Assembly: GCA_043228905.1 (NCBI GenBank) | Contig: JBHGNT010000041.1 | Span: 1-64,000, forward strand | DNA from: Azolla caroliniana | Taxonomy: Eukaryota; Plantae; Polypodiophyta | DNA: 64,000 bases | Direction: 5' to 3' | Shown here: positions 1 to 63,626 of the stretch, in pieces | Layout: each line of letters opens with the position of its first letter | Numbering within the stretch: the stretch's first letter is position 1 | Made by a program: the position numbers and the translations under genes | Notes under the pieces: model-generated | The model's input: the letters and a program-made list of their open reading frames with translations, nothing else | Told to the model about the DNA's origin: nothing | The model's database searches: none

Positions 1-961
1 AGAGGGATTCAACATCAAAAGAAAAAATGAAGCTATTGGGTGGTGTTATAAGTTGTTCTAAAGTTTGGACAAGGGAATGGGAGTCCCTAAGATACTGTTT
101 TTGAACTAGAAGTATGGGGAGGAGTTGATGGTGAAGCCATTTAGACGTTTGTTCAAATAATGAACCGTTATATGAGCAAATCGGTCTATAGCTAACAGGA
201 CTTTTATGTACTTTTGGCAAGAAGTACATATTAGGTATTGAGTAACCTTTAGGAGGTTTGTGTAGGATAAATTCTATTTCTATGAGAGATAAGATATTAC
301 GATTACAATTGACTATGTCTTGTAGTCGACTTAAAAGTTCTTCTAATGGGAGACTATCAACTTTTTTATATGTAGTGATGTCGGATAAATGTTCTAGGGC
401 TTTATCTAAGTATGTTTTTTTATCGAGGACACAAACTCCAATGTTTTTGTCCGCTGGTAGGATGGTTATTTTATTATTATTTTTAAGGCTAGTTATTGCT
501 AATTGGAGGTGTAGTGGTATTTTGATATTAGGTAATATATTATCATGGAGGTTTGTGGAGAGAGAGATATTGTGTTTATGGAGTATAGATTCTAATGGTG
601 GATATTTAGTAGGAGGGTTCCAATTCGGGTTGGGTAGTTTGAAGGGATTAGAGGGAGGAGAGTTGGATTTTCTAAAGAAATGTTTAAGTCTCAAGGATCT
701 ACTTAGGTTTTGGTATTCTTGAAGAATGGATTGGTTAGTAGGTGGGGGGCAAGGGGGTATAAACTTAAGTCCTAGGTTTAAAAGTTTCATTTCTAGTTTA
801 CTAAGGGTGTAACTTGAAAGATTATGAATTTTACTTTGTAAGATGGAAGTAGTGTCTATGGTGGGAGTAAGTGGTTTCCAAAACTTGTATCTAAGCCTTT
901 TAGGGCGTGATTTAGTATAAGGGGAGAAAGGGAAGTGGGAGTTTTCTTTACCAAAGGGGGC
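1..961 (-). CDS. PLE reverse transcriptase, N-terminal half (runs off the window edge)
   Basis: Hand translation gives no stops from 961 to 1: IHNLSSYTLSKLEMKLLNLGLKFIP...RSLRLKHFF...WNPP...ITILPADKNIGVCVLD...YLDKALEHLSDITTY...MYFLPKVHKSPVSYRPICS...YLRDSHSLVQTLE...FSFDVESL. These are the typical PLE NLS/GLxF, ADK, LPKxHK-RPI and motif A blocks. Confidence 0.88.
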
Positions 962-1948
962 CTATCTAGTATGTAAAAAAGACGCTTACAAGGGTGTAAG
1001 GCGTGCTTAAACCGTTTACTAATTCGTTTAGCACGCCTCACTACACGTTTTTTGGTTTCGACACATGAGTTGGAGTTTTAGATGGGGGTTGATAGGGGGG
1101 TTTGTAAGAGTTGTGTGGGTTTGATTTATTATGTGGGTGGGTGGCTGGGGCAGATGGGTTAGAATTACAAAAAAGGGAAGGGGTATTAGATGTAAATAGG
1201 GAGGGGTTACTAACAGGAAAATGGAAAGGGGTATTAGACGTAAATGGGAGGGGTTCTTATTTATATTATGTGGAAATAAGAGGGGGTTGCCGTGTGTGGA
1301 ATTATTAGGAAAAGAGAGGGGGGTATGGGAGGAGTGTGTGAAAATATTGGGGGGGTTTTGTGAAAATATTGAGGGGGTTTGGGGCTATATTAGAGATTGG
1401 GGAAGGGGCAAGACCAAAATTATACAAAATGTTAGGGGGGTAATTAGGGTGGGGATCATTACAAAAAAGGGGCATGGGGTTATGGAGGGGAATATTGGAA
1501 AGTAACGGGGGGTATACAGAGAATTATTAAGAAGTGTAGGGGGAAGGTTTTGAGAGTGAGTGGGATATGGGTAAAGGGATGGGCTATGTTGCTGCCCTAG
1601 CGTAGGAGGAGGGAAAGAAAATTGAGGGGGAGAGGTATCGAGGGGCTTAGTATATGGAGGAGGGTTGGAGAGCAGAGGGGGAAGGTGAGAATGGGGGAGA
1701 TGCTTTCTATTGTAGTCGAGCGCAGGACCTGAGTTTGGGACAGCGTTATGGCCCGCCTGTGAATTAATCTCGTCCTGTTGTTGATGGCTATGTTGGGCCG
1801 ACGAGAAACTAGCAGGTGCAGCCGAAGAGTAGAAGCTATGGACCAGAGACGGGGGTCCTCGGTGTGCAGCCTGTGACCAAGCATGTGTATGGTGGCTCGT
1901 GTCTCTGTGGCCATCGAAAAGTGATGATGGTGGTAGTTGATGGAGATC

Positions 1949-2860
1949 TCCCTCTACCCTAGCATCCCACCTAAACTAGGACTCTCTGCCCTAAAAAGCC
2001 TTATTGCCCCCCACTTTTCTAACCAAAAAACCAATTTGATTTACACCCTTAGTGCCCTCACCTTAGAATACCACTTCCTTAAATTTAACAACCAAATTTA
2101 TCAACAGGTAAAAGGAACAGCCATGGGTAGTAATTTTTCCGTCGTGTATGCATGTCTCTTCCTCTCATATCTAGAAAATTCCAATCCATCACCCCACCTT
2201 TTCTATTTCACTAGGTATATTGATGATGCCTTTGGCGTCTGGACTGGTACTAAAATCCAACTTCTCGAATACCTAAACTTCTATAGTAACTCTACTCAAA
2301 ACTCTATAAAACTAACCATACACACTTCTTACACGAAACTACCCTTTTTAGACCTTTGGATTAGATTAGATAATAATAGATTCACCTTTAATTGCTTTCA
2401 AAAAACACTTAACACATATCAATACATCCCTTATTCCTCCAATCACCCTCTACATGTGAAAAATAGTTTTGTTTCAAATGAACTTAAAAGATATATGGTT
2501 AGAGAAAGCACGGCCCTAGGTTATTTAAATATGCAAAAAAAATTCTTTACGAGACTTAGAGCCCGAGGTTATCCCACACATTTTATTCTAAATAACTTTC
2601 GAAAACACCCTTACTCCCTTAGACACACTCTCCTTTTCAAAGAAAAAACTAAAAAGACCACCCCACCCACTATCTTTAAACTTAGATATACTCGCCATAC
2701 CCCCACACTAATTATTAAGAAAATACTAACTAACCTACACTATGATATCCAATTAGATCCCCAACTACAACATATCCCTAAACCCATTATTTGTTGGACT
2801 AAATCCAAAAACCTCCACTCCCTTCTAGTAAAAACTAAAAACATCCTAGAGCCACTATAA
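1949..2860 (+). CDS. PLE reverse transcriptase, C-terminal half (motif A to thumb)
   Basis: SLYPSIP, YQQVKGTAMGS, RYIDD, LPFLDL, YIPYSSNHP, RLRARGYP. The ORF ends at 2860 with no GIY-YIG domain. Confidence 0.92.
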   Translation, partial: SLYPSIPPKLGLSALKSLIAPHFSNQKTNLIYTLSALTLEYHFLKFNNQIYQQVKGTAMGSNFSVVYACLFLSYLENSNPSPHLFYFTRYIDDAFGVWTGTKIQLLEYLNFYSNSTQNSIKLTIHTSYTKLPFLDLWIRLDNNRFTFNCFQKTLNTYQYIPYSSNHPLHVKNSFVSNELKRYMVRESTALGYLNMQKKFFTRLRARGYPTHFILNNFRKHPYSLRHTLLFKEKTKKTTPPTIFKLRYTRHTPTLIIKKILTNLHYDIQLDPQLQHIPKPIICWTKSKNLHSLLVKTKNILEPL

Positions 2861-2949
2861 ACATATTTTCTCACCCTTCATTTAATCTATCCCCCTTCCT
2901 TGTTCCTCTCTCCTTCCCCCTTACTTTTATTTTGTAGTCACACACATCT

Positions 2950-3157
2950 ACTTTTTTCCCCCAATATTTCCCTTATATCTCACTAAAAACTATATTCTAT
3001 CTCCCCCTCCCTTTTTTTCCCCCCCAATATTTCCCTTATATCTCACTAAAAACTATATTCCATCTCCCCCTCCCCCCTTTTTTTCCATTTCTCATCCCCT
3101 CTTCCTCTCACTACCTTTTTTTCCATTTCTCATCCCCTCTTCCTCTCACTACCTTTT
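2950..3157 (+). repeat. Two tandem duplications in the PLE 3' UTR
   Basis: ccccaatatttcccttatatctcactaaaaactatattc occurs twice, and ttccatttctcatcccctcttcctctcactacc occurs twice. Confidence 0.8.
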
Positions 3158-3494
3158 TATACACTCTCTCTCTTCCCTCTTCCCTCAACCCCTCTCCCTA
3201 ATACCTCTTATTAACTTCCTTTAACTTTCCCTTCTTTCTTTTATTTACATATAATTACACACCCTACCACTCATTCATTTCCCCTTATTCACCTCTTTCT
3301 ACTCCCTCATCTGTCTTATCACCCTATCAATCTTCCATTCACCAGCCCATTTTGTTTCCCCCCCCATATCACCACCCCCTCTATCATCAAGATCTTCCAA
3401 CTTAAAACCTCACAGCCCTCCATCTATTTACATTGTTATTGTACCCCACTCACTATGATTATACATTCTCCTCCCTTCCCCATCCTCAACATCC

Positions 3495-3502
3495 TATATA
3501 AA
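3495..3502 (+). promoter_or_regulatory. TATA box in the PLE pseudo-LTR
   Basis: TATATAAA ends about 20 nt upstream of the hammerhead motif. Confidence 0.45.
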
Positions 3503-3521
3503 CCACCTTTTGTATGTACAT

Positions 3522-3580
3522 GACCTTTTGCACTGATGAGCTCTACCTAAAAGAGCGAAACTAGTTTGCTGCATAAGGTC
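3522..3580 (+). ncRNA. Type I minimal hammerhead ribozyme
   Basis: CTGATGA (3533-3539), stem II GCTCT/AGAGC, GAAA (3557-3560), palindromic stem III ACTAGT, GUU cleavage triplet, and stem I GACCTT..GCA / TGC..AAGGTC. Confidence 0.85.
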
Positions 3581-3609
3581 TTTCCTTTTATTTTAATGGA
3601 ATTTTCCTG

Positions 3610-3648
<39 letters not shown>

Positions 3649-3685
3649 GTGTGCTTAGAATCTTTTCTTATTACATTATCTATGT

Positions 3686-3840
3686 AAACCCTAGACCTAA
3701 TCCCGAAACCCTAATCCCGAAACCCTAATCCTGAAACCCTAATCTCGAAACCCAAAACCCTAATCCCAAAACCCTAATCCCGAAGCCCTAAACCCTAATC
3801 CCAAAACCCTAAACCCTAATCCGGAAACCCTAAACCCTTT
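3686..3840 (+). repeat. Degenerate telomere-like array (AAACCCT / AAACCCTAATCCCG units)
   Basis: Repeated aaaccctaatcccg and aaaccct units. The array is preceded by (TC)n at 3612-3646 and flanked by the 14-bp direct repeat tattacattatcta (3669-3682 and 3843-3856). Confidence 0.85.
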
Positions 3841-4168
3841 CCTATTACATTATCTACCATATCTAAAAGTCGCTCGCACTCCTTGTATCAACCTTACGGT
3901 TAATAAACAAAGTAATGATTGTTGTGAGTAACTTAGTAATTAGTAGTGTGATTAGTGCTAATTACATAGGAAATAATAACTTCAATGGCATTGTGAATTA
4001 TAATATCAACTATTGCACATAACTCTACTTACCATGCTAGTTGTGAATGAAAGAGATTGTGGAGAAATGAGTCTATGAAATATTAAATATTATGAGTCAT
4101 GACTCTAAGCATGTGTGTATATCTACTTTTGACTAAGGGCACAAGGTAATATATATTTGTATACAAAG

Positions 4169-4557
4169 TTTTTTTTTCCCAAAAAAACGGAAAAAAACTC
4201 CTTCCATTATTCATAAAATTTTACAGATTAGAGTATTATATACAAATCCTTGTAGGGACGTGATAATTCCATCTTATGTGGATGCCCACTGACTCAAGAA
4301 AGGGAGAGGACGACTATTGTTGGATGAAGGCTAGTCGTTGTCTTTCAACTCCATTGGAGCCGCCTTTGAGGCCATCATATTGTCTCTTTAGAGTGGCTAC
4401 AACTTCACACCATATCTCTTGCATTAACATTACTGGATGCGTTGTTTGGTTGGAGAAGACTCGTCTATACCGTTGTTTCCATAGAGTCCAAAGAGTTATC
4501 AGGCTGACCAATTCCAACACAACTTGAGATTTAGTAGTAATAGGAGTTTAGTGGATA
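4169..4557 (-). mobile_element. 5'-truncated L1-type LINE fragment
   Basis: Minus ORF with LWTLWKQRYRRVF (the WxxWxxRNxxxF-type C-terminal motif of plant L1 ORF2). The T-run at 4169-4177 reads as a polyA tail. Candidate TSD is tgtatacaaag / tgtacacaaag. Confidence 0.6.
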
Positions 4558-7500
4558 TTGTACACAAAGTTTTAGACCAATATTGTCCTTGAAACAAGCA
4601 ATAACTTTTGATGTTTTACCTTGAGTTATTTGTAGGTTTGTATATGGATATCAATAAAATGTCAAATAAGACCAACTCATCCCCTATGTGTATTTTTAAA
4701 CAATGGCATGGCTCGTAACTGTAAGGCTCAAGGGCATATGCCAACGTATATCTATTAGACATTGAGGACATGGAATATGATGTAGTGCCCACCAGTACAA
4801 TTCATATAATATGTAGTAAAAACAATAAGGATAGTTCAAGGTGGAGGCTACTTTCAAGTTAAATAGTCTTATCGGGAAACTACTTACGATTATATTAATA
4901 TAATTCTAATTGTGATAGCCCAACATCCATCACGTTTCCAAGCTTTTTTTCAAAAGTGTTATCCACCAATACCACCTCAGTCATCATGCTACTATTGTGC
5001 TAAAAAAACATATGTATCTGTGTGTAGTTTTGAAAATAAGGACATATTTGGTCTTTTGTCTATTTTGATATTTGGTATGGTTCATATAACAAATTCTCTT
5101 GGGAGCACACACATCATATTTACGTGGGACAAACATATAGATAATTCTGCATCAATGAGTATTCATGATATATGTTTCTTTGTTACCATCAACTTGCATA
5201 TTGATGATTTATTAAAATGGGTTATTTATTTTTGTCATTTGAAAGGGAATTTCCACGTTATATGCACATTTGCATGTGACATGACACGTATATGTGCAAT
5301 GATCGATTATCTTTTCACCAACTAGGTATGAAAGAACCTACCCACACATGTTTAATAGAATTAAACCTTCTAATAATTCAAAGACGAACATATTATTATA
5401 ACATACATCAAAAGAATCATGATCTTCTTATCTTTATGAGTATCTCGAGTCAAATATCCTTACAATTTGCGTTCTACTTTGTGATAGCATATCTTGAATA
5501 CAAAACTTAGAGAATATAGATATTGAAATTCCATTAGCTTGTAAGCCACACTCTTCTATGCATCTTGAAAACATTCAATCATCGATCTCACATTTGAATA
5601 GTACTTACGCTAGAATTCAAAGCAATATATCATCAAATGGGCTTTGTTGCTCCTTCTACTTTGGAAAGACCATTTTAATAAGAGAGAGGTTAATTTTGAG
5701 ATGAAAGTTAGTTAGTGGCATATTCATTAGATGTATACATTCAGATATACACACGATCATTATTTTTCTTTACGGAAAAAGTGCTTGCTGGCCCTCACTA
5801 TCACTTTTGATATTAGGGTGGGTAAAAGTATTAAATGCCAATATTGATTTCACCTAGTTGGTAAGCCACATGTTTCATAAAGCATAGACTTGGTTTGAGT
5901 CCCACCCATTACCCTAATTTACTACAAACCATTGTGAAATTTAGGGGTTGAATGCACGTCCTTTTTGTCACCATCATACAACCTTACAACATGATATGCA
6001 ACAAAAATATATGCATACGTCCATGTGAGTGTAAATGCAAACTTGCATAACATGGAGGTTGGGGTAACACTTAAAATGTCACATTTGGGCATCTATCTTT
6101 TTGTACAATCTATTGAAGAATTTCAATGCGTGAAGTTCAACCATAGTACAAGACAACTATATATTGTGCGTAGACTTTCGATAATGGTTTAAGTGATGTT
6201 CCAAAAGATAAAGTTCTTAAATACGTTATCATTAGATTGCAGATGGGAAGCTTTCAAGTAAGGCATTTATCCATACAAAGAGAAATGTGTTTTTATGAAG
6301 TTAATGTTGTGCAAATGTGCTAATAATGCAATGCTCCACCTTCAATCCTATTTGAGTTTTCTTTCCCCACATCTTCAACCTTGATCTTAACACACATATG
6401 TCTCTCTCTCTCTCTCTCTCTCCCACTACGCCAATGATGCATGCATACACACATACTAACCTACATCTTATGAAGACAATGGTACACCACTTGTATGGAT
6501 ATGCCACAACTATCAAGAGGCGCTAGCCTGCAACAGCTTGAGCAACAAAATATAGGGATGTCCAAAATATAGAGCAACAGCTTATATGATGTATGAAGGA
6601 AACCCTTTCATGTTATGAATAAGCATTTAATGTTTATCTTCCAAATTACAAATCCTAGTAATATTTGGAAAATGGTATTCAATAAGAACATGCATGTGAA
6701 GAATCAAGACCTTATATGCATGAGTATCTTACGCCCATCTTTAACATTTATCTTATTACGAGGTATATGTAAAAGGATGTGATGACTTAGCTTGAAAAGA
6801 AGTTTACCGAGGCCGACTTTATATATTTATTAGTTTATCCAAAAAGGTAGACAATAGATCCTTAAATACATCACCATATGAAAGTAAATGTCATATGAAT
6901 GCTAAAAATAACCGCCAATAAATTTCAAACGTACCTATGACATTTACAATATCATGAAATCTTGGTATCATAAGATGAGTTGGCATGCTCCCTTTACACT
7001 TCATGAGCGCTTTAGATTCAAAAGCAAAAACTTCAACACAAAACTATGCAATGATATTTAAATGATTGATCAAAGGCATATTTAATGCACAAATTCATAA
7101 CCAACAGGTATTGATCCAAACACCAAATCCCAAACATGTGTAGAATCTTCTTCGACTTCTTCGGTCGAGTCGAATTCGGTTCCTTGTTCAGGCATTTCCC
7201 CTCGTTCTTCAGTCGGTTCTCGATTTTGCCGAATATTAGATCGGTCGACTGGTTCAGATTCGATTTCGATCGATTCAGCTTCTACTCGATTTGACCAAGC
7301 GTCGACTCGGTTCGATTCAGTAGTTGGAGACTTGTTCTCAATCTCCCAATCAATAATCATCTTCTCTTCCATGAAGACGATGTCTCGGCTTTGGATCACT
7401 TTCTTCTCGGCTAAGTCCCATAGCCGATAGCCGAATTCCTCATCGCCGTAGCTGAGAAATATGCATGGCTGAGATTTCGGGTCCAATTTTCCCCTTTGGT

Positions 7501-29228: not shown

Positions 29229-32200
29229 TTAGCATTTATTCAGCATCCCACGACCGAAATATTCGGCTATGACCGAGAATCCATCATCTGAATTCCTCAA
29301 CAACTGGAAGAACCGATCGTGATCATTGGCATTTTGCTCCAAATTATGCTTCATATCGAGCAAAGTGCGATTCGAGGGAGCGCAAATGGGGCACTCCTTC
29401 TCATTATCACCAAGACAACGTTGATGGAATGAATGCATACACAAGAAATGAACAGCGGGAAGATCCAAGGCCGAAGTGCATGCAGAGCATTTGCTTAGTT
29501 GGAAAATCCTTGCATTTGTCCGAAGATCATGGATCTCTTTTCGCATCAAAATAGTTTCTTTCTGCAGACAAAAAGCAAAAACAAAACAATGAAAATATCC
29601 ATAAATGAGCAAAATATAGCAAGACATTCATTAGATGGCACACAATGTGTTAAACATGTTTACCTTTCATAGTCAAACAAGATGTATGGATATAGTTTTG
29701 GTTATAGGTTCCATATGTATGAACTCCTAGTTGTAGTTTCTACTTTTCGGTAACAAAATGAACGTTTTCGTTTCTGTTAAAAAAAGTATGATTGTTCCAA
29801 TACACTGGTCACACATGGAAACAGACCGAATGCATAAGGTTAGAGATAAGGAGGAAAACATCAGTACAACTAATTATAGTGATTGACCATTTGAGCATAT
29901 ACTGTTAATTGCCTGGCTTTCAACATGATTACAAAAGAGAGGAAATGGAGAACAGATATCATTAAAGTGGACAGTGAGGACTTGGATCAATTTAAAAGAT
30001 GACCCATTGTTAAGCCCTTCTCTTTATGTCCCCTAGATGATTTCATTGTTCAACCAAGTATGTGGAGAAAAACACACACCCTTTGCACAATGATAGGTCA
30101 GGTCTAGACATCAGTTCATCAACTGAGGATAAAGACAGGACAATATACAAATATAGCTTTTGTAGAACACATGTCAGCTTTGAAATCAAGAAGTTGAATA
30201 TGAGGAGCATTATGCATGTCTGAAGAGGATATCCTAGTCTCTTTGGAGAAGAATTCGGACCTCTTGGTAGAGTGATTGAACACACTGACAAAGGATGCCT
30301 AGGAACTTTTATTCATGAAAAAAAGAGCCTCTTGAGGAAGAGGGTGACACTCACAGATCCATCTATAACAATAGAAGATTTATGAGAAGTTTCTTCTATA
30401 CGGATATACATACACAAGAACCACCCATCTCCAACAGGTGGTTGTAGCTTCAAGTGAGTGAGGGACATTTTCTATGTCTTGCCTCCAACACCATGGCCCA
30501 TCCATCCGTACCTGAACACAGCCATGTAATAATACAATTAAAGGAGGGCTTCAGAAGCCAGAAATTTCTGTCTGCAGATATCATTGATCAATCACCTCTC
30601 TTGGTGAGTATTGTAGTTACCCATAACTAGATACATCTATTAAAATGTTTATATTTCCCAAAGCTAGATTAAGAAACACATTTCTTTTGTTTTCTCTCTG
30701 ACAAAATGGTCAAGAGATCTCATCCACATATAACCCAAAGAGCATTGGAGAGAGAGTAGGGCCCCCTCTTTCATTACAATGGCGAGTGAAAACCCCTCGA
30801 GGCGCAGGACTCTACACACTACTGTTTGGTAAATAAAATGCATGGAGAAGGCAATGCCAAAAAACATACATAATCAGTACACAGACCATCTTCCTCAAAA
30901 AAACATGGAATACTCTTCCATCGCTATAAATATTTCGAATACCTGATACTTATCAATTGTTTTCTGGTCCTCTTCAATGAATTGTGATATCTGTTGAAAC
31001 TGGCGAGCAATATAGTCTTTCACAACTGTTAATTTCAAAGTTGGGTTTTTGGCAAGCGTCTGCAATACGATAAGAGGAGGAAGCAGATTATCTTTTTCAA
31101 CATACGTAAGAACTTCCTTCACTTCCTTGGAACAGTCTTCTCCCCGTTCCCCGAAATACTGCAGCACATCAGACCAAAGCGAAGAGTCTCCACCCCTACT
31201 AGAATCAGCTAATCTCTTGCAGCAAGAAATAAGTCCCTGATAATCTTTGTCTTGCATATAGCAAGCCATGACATCCTTATAAAGTTTCATTTTTTCATAC
31301 AAAAAGAGAAGACCATCTCTAAACCCATGCATTTCACACAGCACAACTGCCAGATCTTCATCATATCGAGGTTGTTGTTCATGAGGAGGCCATCCACTCT
31401 TAAGCAATGCTAGACCTTTCATACGCCGATCTGCTCGTTCTTCTTTTGACTCTACGAGAAATTCTCCAGCTGCCACTTCTGCTTTACCTTTACTTGTTCT
31501 TTTAGAAAGCAAATCAGTCGAGGAATATCCACCCCTTGATGATACCTTAATATTCAGACTTTTAGACCTGTTCAAACTAGTTTGATTTGTATCTATCTTC
31601 TCCGGTGGTTGTGACAGGCTAGGTGCAGAAATATCTTCAGAAAGATAAAGTTCCAAAAGGGTATTATGTATCTCTACATGGGCTAGAGATTCTTTCACCT
31701 TCGCGATATACTGTTCCAAGAAAAACATCAGCTCTTTAGGCTGGTCAACAAAAATGTGTACAAAATCTACAGGGGATGGGAGATATTCTGGCACACCGTT
31801 GCTGTGTATACTATTTTGCGGTCCATCTCCAACACAAATACCCAATAGTACATCAATAGTTTCTGCCGGTTTATGGCAAACAAGAATTTTCCCATATTGT
31901 TTCAGTCTTAAAGCAGACTCATACAGTGAAAGGCTGGCGATGTATTGAAAAGCTTCGTCGTATCCACCTAAATCCTCAAGCAATATTTTCAAATACCACT
32001 CATGTTCACCAGCTTTTTTTGCAACATACATAGCATGTTGGTGATAACCTGCTGCACGACACACCTTCACAGCTGTCTCTACATCAAACCGAAGCTCCCC
32101 ATCTCCTTTAATGAAGTCATCCAATTTCGCCACAGCTTTAAGTTTCGTAAAACAATTTATCAAGAGAGTTGTATGGTCAGGAGTAGCCAAACCCTTCTCA

Positions 32201-34843
32201 TGAAGCTTCTCTAAATAGTTTGTTAGATTGTGGATTCTCTGTGCATCTAGAAACTTCTGGATCACATATGATGGTTCTAATTGTCCTATTGTCCTGATAT
32301 ATTGGGCCATTGCTTCATCATAATCTTGTTTTCCATATAAATGATCGCCATACTTCCGCAAAACTTCAGCTATTGCTGCCGCATCTTGCTGACTTTGTAC
32401 TAAATTGATTGCAACAGTGTATAAACTCTTCCGGAATAGCAGTTCAAGTTTGCTCTCCATATCCTTTTCTCCTAAATAAATCACACTGTGATCATCCGTA
32501 AGTATTATAATATTACCCCATTCGAACAATACGTGAGCGACCTTTCCAATTGGAAAACTGTATGCAATCAATTTGTTCTTTAAATCATAAATGTTAAAAA
32601 CACTCTTATCTGGTCGTCTCTGGTCTCCTATAACTAACAGAAGATACCCCCTAAACCACCCCACAAAACTTTTCTCTCCTTCAAAAGCCCAGCACGGACC
32701 TCGCCCATCTGCATCGTAAAAATAGACCGCCTCAGGAAGTCCAACCACAAGATCCTGATAGAGAGTATTGTTATAAACAAATTATACATCTTTCTGCAGA
32801 GAATTTCAGAAAAAGAAGTTCAGGAATCAGCATAGATTTCAAACCTGATTGTCATTCATCGCCACACACCCTGTATCGCAACCATGTGGATCGAGAATGA
32901 TCTGGTTTGGGGTCTGTTCATGCATGTTAAACAAAGAGATGCAGTTCGTGGTCACGACAAAAAGCTGGCGTGCTTGACCATCCACTCGGAAACCAAGCCC
33001 TGTTATGGCTGACGCCATTTGACCATCTTTTGAAGAATTAACTACAAGTTTTAGACGTCCCATACCACCACGAGAAACCTCACCCTTTATGCAGTAAACA
33101 ACTCCTGTCTCTAGTCCCAAGCATATAAGCAACATTGGCGGTGCCTCTTCAAATACCAAGAAAGAAGTTATCTGCAGTACAATAACTATGCAATCAAGTG
33201 AAAATGCAGAAGAATTGATATCATTATGATATCCAAGAACCATCTTAAATAAGCAAGCATACCTTTGCTTCAGGATATTTATCGGTGAAGACCTGGAGAG
33301 ATCGAATACATGAAGGCCCAGTCGTGCTTGAGCCCTCCCCAACGGTTTTATCTAAATCAAATATCTTGAGGTAAATTGTGGAGAAAGGAACTGTCTCATC
33401 TTCACCAATTGTTACAAGCATATTTCTTTGCTGCAGAAAGGCATTAAAAGTCATCCAACCAAGACATTGTAAAGGTACATAATCACAATCCTATAATATG
33501 CATTAACTCTATATATCGAAACATAAGCATATGACTCACAGGACCAGAAAAATGTCCACTTAAGAGTGTACACAAATGCAAAAACAAACATATGTTATAT
33601 ATTAAAACCATAGATCATTAGATTCTACAAGTACATGTAGGTAGAGCCCAGAAAGTGGCGGCAGCGATGAAAGGAGCATGGTATCCCAAAAATGCTAGGA
33701 CTCAGCTAGTGTGAAAGTCCCAACTTTTTGGGGATAGCATGCTCCTTATAGACTTCATTTAGACAGAGAGCTCGGGTTCCACATGAATTTCTCATAATCA
33801 TTACTATATCTCTGAGACTCCTGGCTAAATTATACCATTTATATTGAAGCTCAATAAAACCTGCATCATCTTGATTTTTGGAGAGCCAAAGAAATTAATT
33901 ACCATCCTTTCGCAAGAGGAAGCATAGCAAGATATTGACTCACACTCTTTAAATCTAGAGAACATACTACCTACAAGAAGACGCATAAAGCACAGTAATG
34001 TCCATATGATTCTGATTTGGAATAACATGCTTCCAGTTTCAGAAAAGTATCTCCCATCTGCACATAACAATCTTACAACCATACCTAATGAACAGTGGTT
34101 TCTACATGAAAAAAAGCATACATCCATATCAGTGTACACATGATTCCCTATGTTTGAAAACAAGGTCTTGCCTTATTGTATTATATCTATCACTTTCAAT
34201 GCAAGGAACAATGTGATATCACATAATCATTGTGTTGGAGTCTTCCTAGAAAGCAAGGATTGTCTTCTTATAACATGTTACATACAAAAGTCTCTATCTT
34301 AGAAATAATGGCTTGTCTCAGAGTATCTTATCTAATTCTTTTACTCAAACACTAACCAATCATGCTTGGATCTGGATCCAACTACAAACATACATATATA
34401 TGTATAACTTAAACCAACAAACACACACAGATACACACATACATATATACACACACGGATATATACATACAACATAAAGATGTGTGTGTGTGTATATATA
34501 TATATATAACATATGCACATCTATACAATGTGCCAGAAACAAATTGAAAATTGGATCAATGGAAAAAGACATATTTTTCTCTATACATAAATAAACAAAT
34601 TTAGGAGAGAGTTCAGGCGAAGTGGACCTTGAGATGCTGAATGTGATGGACATGACTGGAATGAGCCAGAAAAGAGTGCGAAAGCTTAAGGTTCCGATCG
34701 AGGACATGAACGAGACCATTGCCTCTCTGCGCAACAAGAAGCTGACCCCGCCCACTCGTGCTGCAAACGATGTCCCCTCGAAGCTCCTCAGCACAAGACG
34801 TAGGCTTCTCCTCAAAGAACTGGAATTTCCTCCATTGATACAT
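29229..34843 (-). CDS. VPS11: Vacuolar protein sorting 11 (HOPS/CORVET core subunit), 5 exons, about 951 aa
   Basis: GT-AG exons with consistent phase: 34843-34628, 33430-33263, 33171-32845, 32754-30943, 29561-29229. Starts MYQWRKFQFFEE, has a clathrin-repeat region (KYGDHLYGKQDYDEAMAQY) and a C-terminal RING (CSACTSALDLPAVHFLCMHSFHQRC..CPIC). Confidence 0.95.
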
Positions 34844-43800: not shown

Positions 43801-44774
43801 TTGCTTTACATATGTACTCAGCCTCATGGCATGTCCACTTACACCTTCAAAAAATTGAGGAATGCACCTCATGAATGGGATAAGGTGTGGTTTCATGACA
43901 CTGTGCAGAATCAGGTACACAAAGGTTGACAGAAACTTCACACTTCGATTCCTTTCTCTGTCCCTTTTGAAAGGAATGTTTTATATCTGCGTTATTGTAG
44001 GTAAATCCTTCTACAGACAGTACTTCCAACACTCATGAAAAAGTCTGATCTTTCCATCAATCTGTATATGCGGATTTTGTCAGAAAAAGTTTGAAGCGGC
44101 CATGAAACTGACCAAAAAAGTGGATGATTTTTTATCCACAAATCTGAATTCCACACATATATGCAGAGCTCTTGTAGCCAGAAGGAAGCATTGCCATTGT
44201 TGATGAGAATGCAGTTAAGACTATGTAAGTATCGGAGTTAGATGTATGTTTGTCTGTCATTAAGACTGTGTAAATCATCTCGAGAGAAACACATACACCA
44301 TTACACATTGACTGTGTTGATTCATCAGATGCAGGAAAGGAGTTTGGGTAGACCCTTAGTTGATCAAATCAATTTGGAACGTAAAAGAAACAGAAAAGGG
44401 AGTGGGGAGGAAATGAGAGACATACTCTTCTTGGAGATTGCTATGGGGCGAACAGTTCTTAGCACCTGCAAATTAAGATCACAGAAAGGAATAAAACACT
44501 TTGTAATACATTTCTCATCCTCAATGCCAGAAAATCAGTTGGGACGGGCCAAATTTACATACTTTTCTCGGCTGCTGCTTCGTCACCTGCGGAGGAAATG
44601 TCGTCTTCTTCTAGGGTTACATCGGCCTTCACAGTCTCTGTTTCTTCTTCTTCTTCTTCTTCTTCTTCTTCTCCATCTTCTTCTTCTTCATCTTCTGCTT
44701 CAGCTTCTGCTTCTCCATCTTCTGCTTCTGCTTCTGCTTCTGCTTCTTCTGTACCGTCATCATCATCACCTTCT

Positions 44775-44806
<32 letters not shown>

Positions 44807-45493
44807 TCCTTCTCCTTCTCCTTCTCCTTCTCCTTCTCCTTCTCCTTCTCCTTCTCCTTCTCCTTCTCCTTCTCCTTCTAATTCTTCTTCTTCTTCTTCT
44901 TCTTCTGCTACTGTTGCTGTTTCTGCGTCTTCTTCTTCTTCTGCTGCTTCTTCTATTTTAGCTTTAGTTCGCACTTCTGCATTTGCTTCTTCATCTTCCT
45001 CCTCCACATCCTTTTCTTCTCCTTCGCTTCCTTCTCTTCTTTCTTCTTCTTCTTCTCCTCCTTCATCATCTCCATCTCCATCTCCATCTCCATCTTCATC
45101 TTCATCTTCATCGCCATCTCCATCTCCATCTCCATCTCCATCTCCCTCTCCATCTCCGTCTCCATCTCCATCTCCGTCTCCATCTCCGTCTCCATCTCCG
45201 TCTCCATATCCCTCTTCGTCTCCATCTCCGTCTCCATCTCCATCTCCGTCTCCATCTCCATCTCCGTCTCCATCTCCATCGTCATCTCCATCGTCATCTT
45301 CATCTTCATCTTCATCTTCGCCATCTTCCGCGCCTGCATATTTCACATCCGATTGCGCCTCCTTCTCCACAACTTCACTGATCAAAGCCAAGCTACCATG
45401 GCAAACCTCGTCTTTGCCAGGGAATTCATGGACAGGAGGAGAATGGAGGGGACGACCCTCAACAAGATCCTCCTCCTCCATGGACACGACCAT
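37884..45493 (-). CDS. RING1: PRC1 E3 ubiquitin ligase RING1-like protein, 10 exons, about 716 aa
   Basis: Exons 45493-44563, 44465-44426, 42112-42054, 41966-41885, 41745-41625, 41527-41486, 39016-38495, 38406-38287, 38208-38002 and 37910-37884, all GT-AG with consistent phases. RING: [61 protein letters not shown]-like C-terminus: [11 protein letters not shown]. Confidence 0.92.
39700..41070 (+). mobile_element. Ancient Ty3/gypsy remnant inside a RING1 intron
   Basis: Protease-like [12 protein letters not shown] at about 40243 and RT-like [15 protein letters not shown]...SRIDFKS at about 40615-40700, heavily frameshifted. Confidence 0.65.
42950..44250 (+). mobile_element. Possible highly decayed LINE RT remnant in RING1 intron 2
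   Basis: Only a faint, out-of-frame resemblance to the L1 ORF2 motif order. Confidence 0.25.
44640..45325. repeat. Coding microsatellites (TCT)n, (TCTCCT)n, (TCTCCA/G)n
   Basis: They encode poly-E, (GE)n and (GD)n in RING1 exon 1. Confidence 0.9.
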
Positions 45494-48356: not shown

Positions 48357-50891
48357 CTATCCACAATCTATACATTGGAATGACCATGTTTTAGATGTTT
48401 TCCATGCACCCTTTTCTTCTCTCAAGGCATCGATCTTCTCCACCTCCTCTTTCATCCCACATGTGGCATAAAGATTACTTAGACAAACATAAGCAGTTGC
48501 ATCCATCACATCGATTTGAAGTGCATGTTCAAAGGCAAACCTTGCTACCTTCACATTTCCCCATTTTTGGCACGCACCCAAAACACTGTGCCATATTGAC
48601 ATGTTAGCAACGTATGGCATCTGTTTTATTATTGAAATTACTTTGTCCAAGTGTCCTGCACGCCCAAAAAGATCAATCATACAAGCATGGTGCTCTAAAG
48701 TCGGCATTATGCCATAAACTTCGCTAATAGATTCAAAGTATACTTCACCCTTGTCAAGTAAACCTGAATGGCTACATAAATTGAGTAAAATTGTAAATGT
48801 CGCCAAATCTGGTATCTTCCCTTCATTTACCAAATTTCCAACTAGTTTAAATACCATGTATTCCTTTCCGAGCTGACTAAATCCCGAAATTAATGAAGTC
48901 CACGAAACTACATCCCGAACATTCATTTTGTCAAAAACTTCTGTTGCTTCCATTAGCATCCCACAGCTCCCATACATGTCGATCAATGCGTTATCAACGA
49001 CGATATCAACTTCTAACAACCCATCCTTTACCATCTCAGCATGTATTTCTTGGCCCTTATGCAAAGCTCCAACGCAGCCGCAGCTTTTCAACACACAAGC
49101 AAGGGTAACTGCATCTGGAGAAATGTCATCGAAACGCATTCTTTCAAAAAGATGAAGTGCTTCTTGAGCATACCCATGTTGGACGCATCCAGCAATAATT
49201 GCACCCCAAGTAATAACATCACGAACCTGAAGATTGTCGAAAACTTCCCTCGCTTCCAGTAGTGCACCACATTTTCCATACATATCAATCAATGCATTGC
49301 TGAGAGCAGTGTCATTTGCTAATATCCCCCGTCTGATAATCTCGGCATGTATTTCTTGTCCCTTAGACAAGCCTTCTATTCTGCCACATGCTTTCAAAAT
49401 GCAAGAGAATGTGCTTTCGTTTGGTTCATAGCCCTTGTGTTGCATCTGCTCAAAACACTTATATGCCTGCTCAGTCTCACCATTTTGAACGTAACCTGAT
49501 ATGAGTGCATTCCATGAGACGACATCTCTTACTGACAAATTGCCAAAGACTTCTTGCGCTTTTGCAAGTGCACCACATTTCCCATACATATCCAACAATG
49601 CATTTCCGACCATGACATCTTTTTCTAGCAACCCATCTCTTATTACCTCTAAATGTATTTCTTGGCCCTTATCTAAGATTCCTTGATTTCCACAAGCTTT
49701 CAAGATACTAGCAAAGGTAACTGCATTTGGAGACACACCTTCACGCTTCATTTGTTCAAAACAATCAATCGCCTCCGTGTCATATCCAAATTGTGTGTAT
49801 CCTGCTATAAGTGCACTCCATGAAACCACATCTCGAAATGGAAGCTGATCAAACACTTCTTGAGCTTTTTCCAGAAGACCACATTTCCCATACATATCTA
49901 TTAAGGCAGTGCCAAGCACTATATCTTTCTTCAAAAACCCTTCACTCGCAATCTTTGCATGTATCTCTTGGCCTGTATAAGACGCTCCGATGCTCCCACA
50001 AGCTTTCAACACACTAACAAAAGTGATAGCATTCGGAGATACACCTTCACGTTGCATTTGTTCAAAATGCTTCAGTGCCTCTACACCATTCCCATGTTGA
50101 GCATACGCTGTAATGATAGCACTCCAAGAGACAACATCTCGAACTGAAAGTTTGTCAAATATCTCTTGAGATTTACCAAGAAGACCACATTTAGCATACA
50201 TATCCACCAATGCAGTGCCAACCATAGGATTGTTAACAAGCATATTACCCTCTCCGACAACCGCTGCATGTATTTCTTGGCCCTTATCTGCTGCTTTTAT
50301 GATTCCACAAGCTTTCAAGGCACAAAGATACGTGACGATATCAGGGCACATGCCCTCGCATAGCATTCTTCCAAAATATTTCAATGCCTCTTCACCATAC
50401 CCATGTTGGGTATATCCTGTAATGATTGCATTCCAAGAGATTCCATTACGAAACCGGAAATATTCAAATACTTCTTGTGCATTTAGGAGCGCGCCACACT
50501 TGGCATACATACTAATCAAAGAACTACAAATATAAACATTTTTTTCGAGCAAGCCCTGCTCAGCAAGATCCCGATGTATTCTACTTCCCCTATGCAAATC
50601 TTTCTGCTTTGCACATACCTTCAATAAAGCAATGAAATGACTATCCTCATCACATTTCTCATAGTTACAGCTGTTGCTAAGAAGAAATGCCTGTTGCTCC
50701 TCTTCCTTCTTGTGGAAATCTTCTCTTGTTGTGTAATTTACTTTTTTCCTCGTTGTCATCTTCAGCTCCTGAAAATCACTGCTAATGCTGTGTTTGAAAG
50801 GGGAGTTTTTCTGCTGTGAGAAATAACAAGGGAATGCATGAGCAGGTAAGGAATCGCTTATGAAACTGGTAATTCCACATTGGACACCCAT
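48357..50891 (-). CDS. PLS-class pentatricopeptide repeat protein, E subgroup (no DYW); probable organellar RNA editing factor
   Basis: Intronless 844-aa ORF with repeated ALIDMYGKCG..A.EVFD...RDVVSW and P.AVTF...LKACG triplets, plus E motifs (HHACMIDLFGRAG, WHSVLGAC, YVCLSNLY). There is no HSE/CxxC deaminase. Confidence 0.93.
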   Translation of the reverse strand: MGVQCGITSFISDSLPAHAFPCYFSQQKNSPFKHSISSDFQELKMTTRKKVNYTTREDFHKKEEEQQAFLLSNSCNYEKCDEDSHFIALLKVCAKQKDLHRGSRIHRDLAEQGLLEKNVYICSSLISMYAKCGALLNAQEVFEYFRFRNGISWNAIITGYTQHGYGEEALKYFGRMLCEGMCPDIVTYLCALKACGIIKAADKGQEIHAAVVGEGNMLVNNPMVGTALVDMYAKCGLLGKSQEIFDKLSVRDVVSWSAIITAYAQHGNGVEALKHFEQMQREGVSPNAITFVSVLKACGSIGASYTGQEIHAKIASEGFLKKDIVLGTALIDMYGKCGLLEKAQEVFDQLPFRDVVSWSALIAGYTQFGYDTEAIDCFEQMKREGVSPNAVTFASILKACGNQGILDKGQEIHLEVIRDGLLEKDVMVGNALLDMYGKCGALAKAQEVFGNLSVRDVVSWNALISGYVQNGETEQAYKCFEQMQHKGYEPNESTFSCILKACGRIEGLSKGQEIHAEIIRRGILANDTALSNALIDMYGKCGALLEAREVFDNLQVRDVITWGAIIAGCVQHGYAQEALHLFERMRFDDISPDAVTLACVLKSCGCVGALHKGQEIHAEMVKDGLLEVDIVVDNALIDMYGSCGMLMEATEVFDKMNVRDVVSWTSLISGFSQLGKEYMVFKLVGNLVNEGKIPDLATFTILLNLCSHSGLLDKGEVYFESISEVYGIMPTLEHHACMIDLFGRAGHLDKVISIIKQMPYVANMSIWHSVLGACQKWGNVKVARFAFEHALQIDVMDATAYVCLSNLYATCGMKEEVEKIDALREEKGAWKTSKTWSFQCIDCG

Positions 50892-51512
50892 TCAGCAAAT
50901 TCTTGCACGATTTTTCGGTCGATCTTATGCCATTTTGATCGATATCAAGCAATCCTTCAGTCGATCACTTGCGATTCTCGTACAGGGGAGGGGTTACACA
51001 GTTTCCAATCGAACTTACGATATTTCTCAACATTTTTTAGTCTTCTACATGCTTCTCTTACTTCTGCTCTAATTCCTCCATCGCCCACACATCATCATCC
51101 TTCATGATTTTCCTCCCTGCTTCCCTTTGGCCTCAGCTACACCTGTGTTTCCATAGCCAAGGCCTTCATCTTTCTTCTCTCCTTCTTCTTTTCCTTCTTC
51201 TTTCCACGGCTAATTCTTGGAAGAAGATTAGAGAAAGATATGGGGATTATATCATGAATCTTCTCTCCTTCTCCTTCTTTTTCTTCTTCTTTCCATGGCT
51301 AATTCTTGGAAGAAGATTAGAGAAAGACATCAATTGGGGATGGATTATATCATGAATAAATTTAGCTCTTGAAGCGAAAGAAGATCAAAGAAGGAGACAT
51401 AGTGTGAACGCGTCCGCTTTACACACACCGATGATGGCCGCTACTTCTCTTCACCGAAAAGACAAAGTCCCTATAGGCCCGAGGGGATCGATTCTGGCAT
51501 AGTAAAGTGGGA

Positions 51513-51585
51513 GTCGGCCTAGCTCAGATGGTAGAGTGTAAGGCTCTTAAACTTCTGGTCATGGGTTCGAGCCCCATGGCCGATG
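51513..51585 (+). tRNA. tRNA-Lys(CTT), probable pseudogene (one of the two best-preserved units; the second is 51619-51691)
   Basis: The 73-nt cloverleaf has paired acceptor, D and T stems and intact A/B boxes. The anticodon stem has two mismatches and no oligo-T terminator follows. Confidence 0.55.
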
Positions 51586-53471
51586 TTGCTGGATCGATTC
51601 TGGCATAGTAAAGTGCGAATCGGCCAAGCTCAGATGGTAGAGCATAAGGCTCTTAAACTTTTGGTCATGGGTTCGAGCCCCATGGCCGACGTTGCTTACC
51701 ATGCAAGATTTTCATGAAACTCTAGATACATGGAAGTACATAATAACCACGTCATCAAAGTCCACATGGCCAACCTAGTTTAGATGGTAGAGGGCAAAGT
51801 TCTTAACCTTATGGTCATGGGTTTGTGCCCCATGGCTGGCGTGCTTGCCATATAAGATGTTCATGGAACTCTAGATCCATGAAAGTACTTAACAATTACA
51901 TTGTCAAGTCGACACAGGCATTTCTTGCCACATAAAAATGTGTATTGAACTCTACATGTCAGATTGGTATTATTGGCCATGCAAAAAACACACTCTACAT
52001 GCTTGACATGCACTCCTTGCCACGTAAAATGTTCAGTATGTGAAAGGCTTTTTGTTATCTAGCTGGCCTAGCTTAGATGGTAGAGCACAAGGCTCTTAAC
52101 ATTGTGGTTATGGGTTTGAGCCCCATGGTTGGCGTTTCTTACCATGTAAACTATTAATTGAATTGTAAAACAATAGAGTATTTAACAAACATGTCAGCAT
52201 AAGCTCAATACCCCTGTCTAAAGAGCATTTCTTGCTTGCCACATAAAGTGTATATCAAACTTTGCATCTTCGAACATTTCTTGCCACATAAAATGTATAA
52301 CATGCCTGACATGCATTGCGTGCCACGTAAAATGTTTATGGCACTCTAGGTAGATAGAAGTATGTCGTCAAGCCCGCCTAGCTCATATGATAGAGCGCAA
52401 GGCTCTTAATGTTGTGGTCATGAGTTTAAGCCCCATGGCTAGCGTTGCTTACAATGTAAGATGTTCATGAAACTCTAGATACATGAAAGTACATAATAAG
52501 CACATTATCAAGTTCACATGGCTAGCCTAGTTTAGATGGTAGAGGGCAAGGCTCTTAACCGTATGGTCATGGGTTCTAGCCCCCTATCTCATATGCTAGA
52601 GCGCAAGGCTCTTAACCTTCTGGTTAGGGGTTTGAGCCCCATGGCCGGTGTCTCTTACCACGTAAAATGTTCATTGAATTGTAGATCAATGAAAGTATTT
52701 AACAAACATGTCAGGCTAGCTTAAATGGTAGAACCTCATGGTTGGCATTGTTTCCCATGTAAAATCTTCATGGAACTCTAGATTCATAAAGGAACATAAC
52801 AAACATGTCAGCATAGGCTCAATACCCATGTTTGAAGAGCGTTTCTTGCCACATATAATGTATATCGAACTCTACATGTGGGAAGGGCATTTTTGGCCAC
52901 ATAAGATGATTTTGGAACTCTACATGCTTGATATGCATTGTTAGCCCTGGTTGAAGGGAGAATATGAACAAACAAAAGAAAAAGAAAGATATATTGAAAT
53001 GGTGGAGTTTTATCTGAGAATTAGTCTTGACGTAACAAGTATTAGGAGGAGATAAAGATACACCTGTAATACTAGGAACGTGGAAGCTTTTTTCTTATCG
53101 AGGAAGATGGGTTTGTTTTTAAATATACCACATATTTTTATCTAGATAGACCTTTCTCTGACTATTCATTGCGGAATTACATGCGTTGACCAACCTTGTT
53201 AATTAAGCTTGGATTATTGCTCGGTGAAAACAATGTTTATGGCACTCTAGGTAGATGAAATACGCAAACAAGCATGTTGTCAAGCCGTCCTAGCTCAGAT
53301 GGTAGAATGCAAGGATCTTAACCTTGTGGTCCTGGGTTCAAGCCCCACGGTTGGAGTTGCTTAGAATGCAAGATGTTCATGAAACCCTAGATACATGAAA
53401 GTTTATAATAACCACGTCACCAAGTCCAAAAACAGGGCCAACCTAGTTTAGATGGTAGAGGGTGGCTAGTG
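51513..53471 (+). repeat. Tandem array of about 10 degenerate tRNA-Lys(CTT)-derived units with shared spacers
   Basis: Units at 51513, 51619, 51769, 52062, 52372, 52521, about 52584, about 52714 (internally deleted), 53284 and 53437 (internally deleted). The consensus GCCGGCCTAGCTCAGATGGTAGAGCGCAAGGCTCTTAACCTTGTGGTCATGGGTTCGAGCCCCATGGCTGGCG closely resembles plant tRNA-Lys-CTT. Confidence 0.88.
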
Positions 53472-53490: not shown

Positions 53491-55197
53491 TGTTGGCATA
53501 AAAGCCTGACTCCTTCCAATTTGTATTCGGCTTAGTATTCGGCTTAGTGTGAACTCGTCCACATAGTTAAGGCTTAGTATATAAGCAATAACCTGACGTT
53601 GTAGAGAAGAGATAGATATATACACATTGTATCAAGGCTCTGAGAGAGAGAGAGAACGTAATAAAGCTTTCCATTAAAGCTCATTTCTGTGTAAGTCTCC
53701 GCCTTCCTCCCCTTCTGTGTTGTTTTCCGACATACGCAAACAGGTTCTCATACGCTTCCGCATATGCACACACACCTACCAAACTTTCTACAACTGGTAT
53801 CAGAGCATCCTTGCTATTCGGCAGCAATAACCTGACGTTGTAGAGAAGAGATAGATATATACACATTGTATCAAGGCTCTGAGAGAGAGAGAGAACGTAA
53901 TAAAGCTTTCCATTAAAGCTCATTTCTGTGTAAGTCTCCGCCTTCCTCCCCTTCTGTGTTGTTTTCCGACATACGCAAACAGGTTCTCATACGCTTCCGC
54001 ATATGCACACACACCTACCAAACTTTCTACAACTGGTATCAGAGCATCCTTGCTATTCGGCAACAGACAACAGAAGAAGCTCAAAAGAAAAGATGAGGTC
54101 AGTAAAAATCTCAGTTTTCATAGAAGAATATGGCTTCAACATCCGGAACATGAGTTGAAATCAGAATGTTCGATGGTAAAAATTTTGCACTCTGGAAGGA
54201 GATGATGTAGGATGTTCTGATCATCAGAAGACAAGTCAAAACTATTCGACACAACGAAAAACCCGCTTCGATGACAGTCGAAGAGTGGAAATCGATGGAT
54301 GAAATTGCACGCTCCACCATCCGAATGCATTTGGCCGAAAACGTCTACTTCAGCATGGCAAAAGAGACTACAACGTTCTCACTATGGGAGAAGTTACAAG
54401 TTGTGTATGAGAAGAAGTCCTCATCTTCGAAACTGATTTTGATCAAACAACTTTTCAACATAAAGATGAGAGAAACCGATTCAACTACCTCCCACATCAA
54501 CACCTTCAGCCGGGTCTTGTCAGAATTCTCCTCACAAGGGATCAACTTCGAAGAAGAAGTGAAAGCCCTTGCCCTCCTATCCAGCTTGCCGGCGAGTTGG
54601 GAGGTATTCTGCACGACATACGCCAATAGTCGACTGATCCTAAATCTGGATGAGACGATCGGCCAAGTCCTCACTGAGGACATTCGGCGAAAATTGATGG
54701 GACTTGCCATTGATGAATCGGTAGAAGCCCATCACTCGACTGAATCGTTCGACCGATAGAGTCGTATGAGAGAACAAGCCGACAAAATCGTTCGGAATAC
54801 CAACCGATCAAAAACGAGGGGAGACCGACAACGATTGAAGTCGAGAACGGGCCGATTAGGCGAATTCTGCACACATTGCAGAAAAGCAGGGCACAATGTT
54901 TTTCCAACTCTTGGTCAATCAAGAGGAAAGAGAATGGTCGCCGATCTGAGTGAAATTGAGGTAGACCCGATTCAGACCACTCTCCAGCTGGCAACCAAAT
55001 CAACGTTGTCGACTCTCCATCGGGAGAAATTCTCTCCTTAGAGGACTCTATGATCGGGGAAGTCCTCTATAGTGCACAAGAAGCACACACGTGGTTACTG
55101 GATTCCAGTGCCACATTTCACGTGACCCCAAACATAGAAGGTTTTAGAACTATTTGGCCGACACCAGCGACACAGTCAGTCTGGGAAACGAGTAGGA
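53491..55197 (+). mobile_element. Degenerate Ty1/copia element D (5' LTR, PBS, gag, start of protease)
   Basis: LTR at 53491-53792 (tgttgg..ctaca), PBS tggtatcagagc at 53795-53806, gag FDGKNFALWK/ARSTIRMHL and WLLDSSATFH. It is interrupted at 55198. Confidence 0.85.
53584..54061 (+). repeat. 239-bp tandem duplication of the LTR 3' part plus PBS
   Basis: 53584-53822 matches 53823-54061, giving a second PBS at 54034-54045. Confidence 0.9.
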
Positions 55198-63557: not shown

Positions 63558-63626
63558 GATTTTGATTTCGCTTTTGCATGATTACTTCGCTTTTTTAAAA
63601 ATAAATAAATAAATTGTAGTGTGAGG

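Follow-up and report, generated by a model that had tools for sequence, protein, structure and literature searches.

An endonuclease-less Penelope-like element with a fixed 3' end on non-telomeric DNA in a contig of Azolla caroliniana

Introduction

Among mobile elements, endonuclease-less (EN-minus) Penelope-like elements (PLEs) stand closest to telomerase, and they have been described as generally restricted to chromosome ends. The stretch dealt with here, called the window below, is positions 1 to 64,000 (forward strand) of contig JBHGNT010000041.1 in assembly GCA_043228905.1 of Azolla caroliniana, and its left end holds a PLE with a reverse transcriptase (RT), a hammerhead ribozyme and no endonuclease. 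The copy is 5'-truncated, lies head to head in two pieces and has a fixed 3' end on non-telomeric DNA, and it probably arose when the element's RNA was copied onto the broken ends of a chromosome.

EN-minus PLEs of Selaginella are attached to telomeres through reverse-complement telomeric stretches, as the accessible parts of PMC8557442 and PMC4209133 describe them, and the mode of internal insertion in a plant EN-minus group is left open in section 9 of the former. The PLE-X elements, according to the same part of PMC8557442, sit in 28S ribosomal DNA or, in Chara, genome-wide. For EN-minus PLEs the accessible text of PMC3846280 names priming at double-strand breaks as possible, with spread largely confined to chromosome ends; break priming has thus already been foreseen, and a single internal copy is no surprise. 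We found no description of EN-minus PLEs from ferns in the literature searched, which did not extend to Gladyshev and Arkhipova 2007, Lin 2016 and Arkhipova 2017.

Results

The window was compared with 67 loci, found on metagenome contigs by a profile scan using an alignment of 21 relatives. One of them, L001, carries tandem units of the window's family, which repeat about every 5.5 kb and stand head to tail in the order TATA box, hammerhead, spacer, GCACTCC motif, open reading frame (ORF) 1 and ORF2, the RT. The match to L001 and the empty-site contigs both put the end of the element at 3912, not at 3860 where the original prediction had it. Between the counterparts of window positions 3912 and 1950, L001 has 1634 nucleotides (nt) that the window lacks, and these are the 5' half of an 846-codon ORF1.

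The 3' end of the window copy is 37 nt from the start of the GCACTCC motif, and the flank beyond it is non-telomeric, with no CCCTAAA or TTTAGGG in 1000 nt. Single-copy contigs of the right flank in two public runs reach 3911 and 3923 (X1, X2) and then go on into about 1.5 kb of other sequence. Judged from these contigs, the X1 and X2 individuals appear to be without the insertion, and the target is continuous, non-terminal DNA. The motif was found in 29 rows, 19 of which run on into ORF1, and in ten copies the element ends 30-49 nt from the motif's start; 12 other 3' exits of 22 were left uncounted, as they lie elsewhere in the unit or have no close relative to define them. Nine of the ten ends are on non-telomeric DNA and represent five families (the window, L034 and L038; L031 and L036; L025 and L032; L039; L058), and the tenth, L012, is joined to perfect (CCCTAAA)n. 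Telomere-like repeats, which the original prediction expected at the 3' ends of other copies, are thus found at none of the three ends in the window's own family and at one of ten overall.

Telomere joining does occur next door, in a sister family (L005, L006, L012 and L013) that behaves as the original prediction described; the window family has the L004/L005 branch as its sister, with a support of 0.94. The sequence CTAAACCCTAAACCCC stands at the 3' end point only in the L005/L006/L012 family, and a truncated 5' end of that family (L013) is capped by (CCCTAAA)n. The distant L061 also terminates in telomeric repeats. The 3'-terminal telomeric stretch and junction of the Coprina group are accordingly seen in L005/L006/L012 and L061, and the reverse-complement telomeric stretch is absent from the window family and four other families.

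No target duplication was seen at any of the seven loci with both flanks, and no motif shared by the flanks could be found by eye; 5 of 24 flanks match proteins of long terminal repeat (LTR) retrotransposons. Around the terminal motif we found neither a common hairpin, the folds being weak and unlike each other, nor an antisense partner of at least 8 nt within the unit. For L039 we considered that the element interrupts a copia RNase H, a reading given up because only the 5' flank is clearly copia; about 25 nt of this flank are common with the element, and a chimera is possible.

The (TC)n tract and the AAACCCT-type array are present as the original prediction had them, but both are internal to the element and neither is a target or a 3' junction. 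The array has 11 AACCCT, a count reached by none of 2000 shuffles, although perfect CCCTAAA occurs only 3 times in its 153 nt, and it is bracketed by near-identical 19-nt direct repeats (3664-3682 and 3838-3856). It is internal, for a further 74 nt of element follow it, and then ORF1 in tandem copies, and two close relatives, L034 and L038, have the same end point without it. One contig of X1 spans the array, the terminus and the start of ORF1 at a unit depth of about 590 against 34-50 for single-copy neighbours, a contig depth that is not to be taken as a copy number. An element that primes on telomeric or microsatellite ends, with the array as the chromosome end or priming tract, would fit the telomeric junctions of the sister family and of L061, the C-rich repeats that the array shows on the sense strand and the exit of L009 from the element at (TC)n, which is possibly an assembly jump. 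For the window copy this reading is nonetheless largely refuted, and we hold it to be very unlikely, in view of the element sequence behind the array, of L034 and L038, of the flank without telomeric repeats and of the continuous empty site.

The two RT halves of the window lie in opposite orientations, and joined they give the RT of about 620 codons that had been proposed. It matches P0001, an unbroken database protein of 621 residues with 21 cluster members that spans both frames, with one difference in all: the minus-strand frame (2-961, 320 codons in the window's list of open reading frames) has none over residues 4-320, and the plus-strand frame, listed as open over 1937-2860, has one over residues 320-621. 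In four public runs contigs link both RT halves in unbroken order. The DNA of the two halves overlaps by 7 nt, window 1949-1955 being the reverse complement of window 1-7, and at the junction there is a microhomology of 2 nt (TC, 1949-1950). Pseudo-LTR arrangement and 5' truncation, both PLE traits, are found in the families studied, as are partial tandem (L001, L020, L021) and partial inverted arrangements (the window, L060, L006). Head-to-head pieces are thus present elsewhere, as a fold-back in L060 and as two families joined in L006, and no other case of an abutting inversion like the window's was found among the 67 loci.

Two geometries can account for this, and we lean slightly towards the one in which the minus-strand copy extends to the left of the window to a 3' end of its own, so that two 5'-truncated copies stand head to head and the assembly broke at the start of a 2-kb inverted repeat. 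PLEs typically have inverted, 5'-truncated copies at their 5' end, and these are hard to assemble, in the accessible account of PMC8557442, and permuted inverted halves on detached contigs are described in that of PMC3846280. The fold-back of L060, the two families head to head in L006 and the palindrome at the window junction point the same way. An overlap of 7 nt is, on the other hand, short for an assembly break, and there is no sequence to the left of position 1. Twin priming of one RNA, with position 1 as the true left border beside the 1.5-kb empty-site flank, is a possible but less favoured geometry. The 5' inversions of L1 have abutting halves with a short overlap or microhomology, and the window likewise has abutting halves, an overlap of 5-7 nt and the 2-nt microhomology, but the exact start of the window would then be unexplained unless the border is also where the contig breaks, and abutting inversions are missing from the other copies.

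That the inversion is an artefact of assembly or of a chimeric read at the contig end is very unlikely in our opinion. The three homopolymer indels and the 25-nt deletion of the copy are all in its left part and the junction was not seen in the runs, which would suit an artefact; X1 and X2 are however without the insertion at the site and would for that reason not show the junction, and inverted structures of this kind are usual for PLEs. An artefact would in any case leave the 3912 junction and the anatomy of the family unchanged.

A borrowed nick is another way to open a target for an RT without endonuclease, the enzyme acting in trans and coming from a long interspersed nuclear element (LINE), a GIY-YIG Penelope or the host. 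Internal ends are many and spread across five families, which suggests more than rare accidents, and the nearly abutting inverted halves resemble twin priming in L1, which follows staggered nicks. The lack of target duplications and of a common flank motif speaks against a nick, and the accessible text on rotifers (PMC3846280) reports no sign that EN-less elements are cross-mobilised by the Penelope endonuclease, so that we find this explanation unlikely, if less so than an artefact.

The insertion is recent, since only 5 substitutions separate it from the closest database unit in the stretches compared. Against L001 it has three single-base indels in homopolymers, and the 25-nt deletion takes out the methionine of MWLG and disrupts the reading frame in the stretch from the frameshift site to the RT. 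With half of ORF1 gone as well, the window copy is by its sequence non-functional. The family is young, as had been proposed, but the suggested activity does not extend to this copy.

No GIY-YIG domain was found by Pfam in six ORF1/ORF2 pairs or in the proteins P0001, P0017 and P0022, the control P0041 being detected at E 3.6e-07, and a profile of 18 relatives with endonuclease (EN+) gave no hit in six frames of the 67 loci and window 1-6000 (best E 0.79). The C-terminal GIY-YIG that characterises Penelope/Poseidon (Dryad) and Neptune is absent, with no endonuclease after the RT stop at 2858-2860. The search of full-length copies that the original prediction had asked for thus gave no N-terminal GIY-YIG with either method, and its endonuclease-less PLE with a hammerhead is borne out. 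PLE-type traits are present in the RT (an N-terminal HNLS, the DK motif, motifs A and B', YIDD and the thumb), of which the 3' half matches RVT_1 of Pfam at E 0.015.

A FastTree tree of 161 of the 175 candidate proteins (550 columns; no named fungal Coprina, Athena or TERT) unites the window with the Selaginella protein P0022, Cryptomeria and Ginkgo at a support of 1.0, which upholds the proposed Selaginella-type EN-minus group. A branch containing Closterium comes next to this clade (support 0.96), and all EN+ proteins fall outside it. From motif A to B' the RT spans 64 residues, with DKN present; the CxC motif and the insertion in the fingers, traits of Naiad/Chlamys and PLE-X, are both missing, and the element is therefore neither Chlamys nor PLE-X. 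In terms of sequence it is an endonuclease-less PLE of the Selaginella Coprina-type group and belongs to a young land-plant family. The cluster of P0017, from Cryptomeria, has several near-identical intact copies, possibly tandem arrays, on unplaced contigs that are small (15-52 kb).

Features of the window copy are collected in Table 1.

Table 1. Coordinates of the element's features in the window
Feature	Position	Strand	Remarks
ORF2 (RT), 5' half	2..961	-	HNLS (N-terminal), ADKN, RT motifs 1-2, A to FDVESL; open at window base 1
25-nt deletion	951..952	-	only in the window copy, compared with L001; contigs of X1 and X2 carry 25 extra letters behind 951
Stem-loop	996..1041	-	directly behind the slippery site; GGCGTG/CACGCC core; -24.1 kcal/mol; predicted frameshift stimulator
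ORF1, 3' half	1041..1950	-	5'-truncated; His/Pro/Asn-rich, low complexity; 98.5% to L001 5966-7941
Slippery heptamer A_AAA_AAC	1047..1053	-	one codon before the ORF1 stop; ORF2 in the -1 frame
Head-to-head junction	1943..1955		palindrome GAGATCTC at 1943-1950; window sequence
RT frame, 3' half	1949..2860	+	SLYPS, GTAMGS, YIDD, thumb; stop 2858-2860
3' untranslated region	2861..3494	+	pyrimidine-rich; tandem duplications of 63 nt and 38 nt
TATA box	3495..3502	+	TATATAAA; likely promoter of the next tandem unit
Type I hammerhead	3522..3580	+	palindromic stem III/loop AAACTAGTTT; predicted cut after 3566 (GUU)
(TC)17	3612..3646	+	internal to the element
Degenerate telomere-like array	3686..3838	+	14-nt unit CCTAATCCCGAAAC; internal to the element
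GCACTCC motif, conserved	3876..3882	+	ORF1 of the next unit starts about 53 nt further on; 3' ends of copies are clustered just past the motif
Element 3' end	3911..3912	+	AG common to the empty site; L001 match stops at 3912

The hammerhead named in the original prediction is real in spite of a weak score in Rfam (HH9 on 3519-3589, 22.3 bits, E 0.05, below the gathering score of 52), for its core is invariant across 16 relatives and compensatory pairs are present. In the alignment 98.6% of cells are paired and 3 of 9 pairs have changes on both sides; the covariation score was reached by 0 of 500 shuffles, a comparison that related sequences can win even without structure. By sequence the hammerhead stands in a pseudo-LTR, which is a PLE trait. 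Stem III is short and the loop palindromic, a form that the accessible part of PMC4209133 describes as working in dimers. One contig of X2 starts at L001 3982, the first base past the predicted cut, a single hint that cleavage would set the 5' end of the RNA. A TGC duplication was briefly taken to ruin the cut site and was dropped, the sequence being common to the relatives. In L026 (990-1010) a copy begins within a hammerhead with its core apparently deleted, about 30 nt past the expected TATA box. Boxes of the form TATAWA stand 36-39 nt before the core at 36 of 47 hammerheads and 51-53 nt before it at 8, and are absent at 3; the TATA box of the window had been recognised correctly. In run X11, which is RNA by guess, depth is about 25-30 on the 3' half, while the 5' half is scarcely covered and single-copy DNA not at all.

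The 3' half of ORF1 had no place in the original prediction and came out of the comparison with L001, where the full ORF1 consists of a helical N-domain, a part with Asn-Pro repeats, for which AACCCT units code, and a tail of low complexity. A structure model of the N-domain has four long helices (mean predicted local distance difference test score 81.4), and on this model ORF1 is of the coiled-coil type. It gave no fold match in PDB at E<=0.001, and neither did the RT profile match any PDB sequence; the domain has no likeness to P0013 of Closterium, and a search with it returned only two longer relatives, both unnamed. Through the AACCCT units (L001 5319-5564, and other copies) the coding RNA bears long telomere-like tracts, and L027 exits the element there. 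L020 and L027 are mosaics with the RT of one family and the hammerhead region and ORF1 of another, which suggests template switching, or else assembly paths through shared sequence.

The prediction is that the RT is translated as part of an ORF1-RT fusion, through -1 ribosomal frameshifting. What is known to go with programmed frameshifting of this type is found in the sequence, namely an X_XXY_YYZ heptamer, a structure downstream of it and overlapping -1 frames. The RT is in the -1 frame in 37 of 39 ORF1/RT overlaps, and ORF1 ends one codon past A_AAA_AAC in 28 of the 39, all of them from the close clade. The 6-bp core of the stem-loop is conserved in all 17 rows, and 2 of 11 pairs have changed on both sides, a slight covariation to which coding constraint contributes; by eye no pseudoknot was found at the site. 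The RT frame begins with a basic KKR...RRAKR block.

Right beside the insertion, window 4190-4560 is a very high-copy repeat, whose contig depth in X1 reaches about 220,000, single-copy DNA being at 37. Further along are VPS11-like exons (30895-33351), an intact pentatricopeptide repeat (PPR) gene of 844 codons with an E motif (48357-50891) and nested copia and gypsy elements (7000-28000 and 58800-64000) with near-identical LTR pairs (17929-18641/22757-23471, 99.6%; 7735-8167/12968-13400, 98.4%). To judge from their coding sequences, VPS11, the PPR gene with its E motif and the copia elements are land-plant neighbours. Four tRNA-Lys(CTT) genes (51513, 51619, 52062 and 53284) lie among degenerate tRNA-derived repeats in window 51485-53462, and on the minus strand at 44555-45493 there is an acidic frame of 312 codons, (DG)n and (EG)n, from hexamer arrays. 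An exact tandem duplication of 239 nt (53584-54062) is possibly an LTR end or an assembly duplication.

Discussion

The most reasonable explanation of the window copy is, in our view, that telomere targeting has likely been lost in most of these families, and that they are primed without endonuclease at chromosome breaks. The TATA box of the preceding unit is predicted to drive transcription of the unit downstream, and the hammerhead, probably as a dimer, would trim the 5' end of the RNA. The RT may then recognise GCACTCC and begin copying just behind it. Families without CTAAACCCTAAACCCC would use the free 3'-OH at a break, helped by a few bases of microhomology; both ends of the break may have been primed, with two cDNAs meeting head to head, or one RNA may have been primed twice. 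Of the two ideas about the site in the original prediction, a healed break is the likely one, and priming on telomeric or microsatellite DNA does not agree with the non-telomeric flank.

Several points weigh against priming at breaks. Confinement to chromosome ends was scored from the flanks of contigs (the window and eight others on ordinary DNA), which is not a genome-wide census, and 62 of the 67 loci come, by their printed names, from one metagenome assembly series, with collapsed contigs and flanks chosen by the assembler. The ten ends consist of the nine rows that do not continue into ORF1 and of L034, added by hand, after a spurious L004 row had been dropped. One contig of X1 passes the 3' end point into ORF1 at unit depth, and no loose ends at that point were found in the four runs (contigs on L001 3900-6100); contigs drop rare variants, yet dispersed ends were not seen in the reads, and the public runs examined show neither of the two junctions of the window copy. 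Full-length source copies may yet be terminal, and most full-length copies may belong to arrays at the tips of chromosomes. That the 3'-OH comes from the end of a break is something we infer.

What deserves attention is the contrast between five families, whose fixed 3' end adjoins ordinary DNA, and a sister family with the telomeric stretch and telomeric junctions. Such a pair is a natural test of primer choice and of where reverse transcription starts. We hypothesize that an endonuclease-free radiation in land plants, probably ferns, has left the telomere: the motif would fix the start, a telomeric stretch of about 16 nt would decide the target, and the other families would prime on breaks, often on both ends. 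We see the arguments for and against this as evenly balanced; if it is true, the switch between telomere extension and genome-wide retrotransposition is directly testable in living sister families.

Closest to the window family are the EN-minus PLEs of Selaginella (Sm1/Sm2, placed with Coprina; 'Selagine1' in Fig. S1 of PMC8557442, of which this and the other comparisons use the accessible parts), with which it has in common the RT as sole domain, DKN, fingers without insertion and a type I hammerhead. Compared by eye, the motif A and B' blocks of Selagine1 agree with P0022 at 22/30 positions, and with the window at 15/30 (motif A block) and 15/18 (B'). Unlike the Selaginella elements, the window family has no telomeric 3' stretch and joins internal DNA. 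It has two ORFs linked by a -1 slippery site, whereas Coprina usually has one, and two in Coprina-1_Alen, in the part of PMC13159263 available. The EN(-) PLEs described from conifers (Pinus taeda and Picea abies; accessible part of PMC9033089) are matched here by the Cryptomeria and Ginkgo proteins that share the window clade.

Athena and the Terminons of bdelloid rotifers are also EN-minus, with a coiled-coil ORF1, a frameshift, a basic block resembling a nuclear localisation signal and a hammerhead (legend of Fig. 1, PMC8557442). Athena belongs, by its printed motifs in the same paper, to another RT clade, our tree holding no Athena sequence; it is rotifer-specific and telomeric, and the window unit is without the extra ORFs. 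PLE-X, the EN-minus derivatives of Chlamys in Selaginella and Chara, have in common with the window family the lack of endonuclease, a canonical hammerhead and non-telomeric insertion in plants (PMC8557442), but they carry CxC and belong to the clade with an insertion in the fingers, while the window family has neither and varied flanks. The window family would thus be a second, independent route by which plants have come to harbour internal insertions made without endonuclease.

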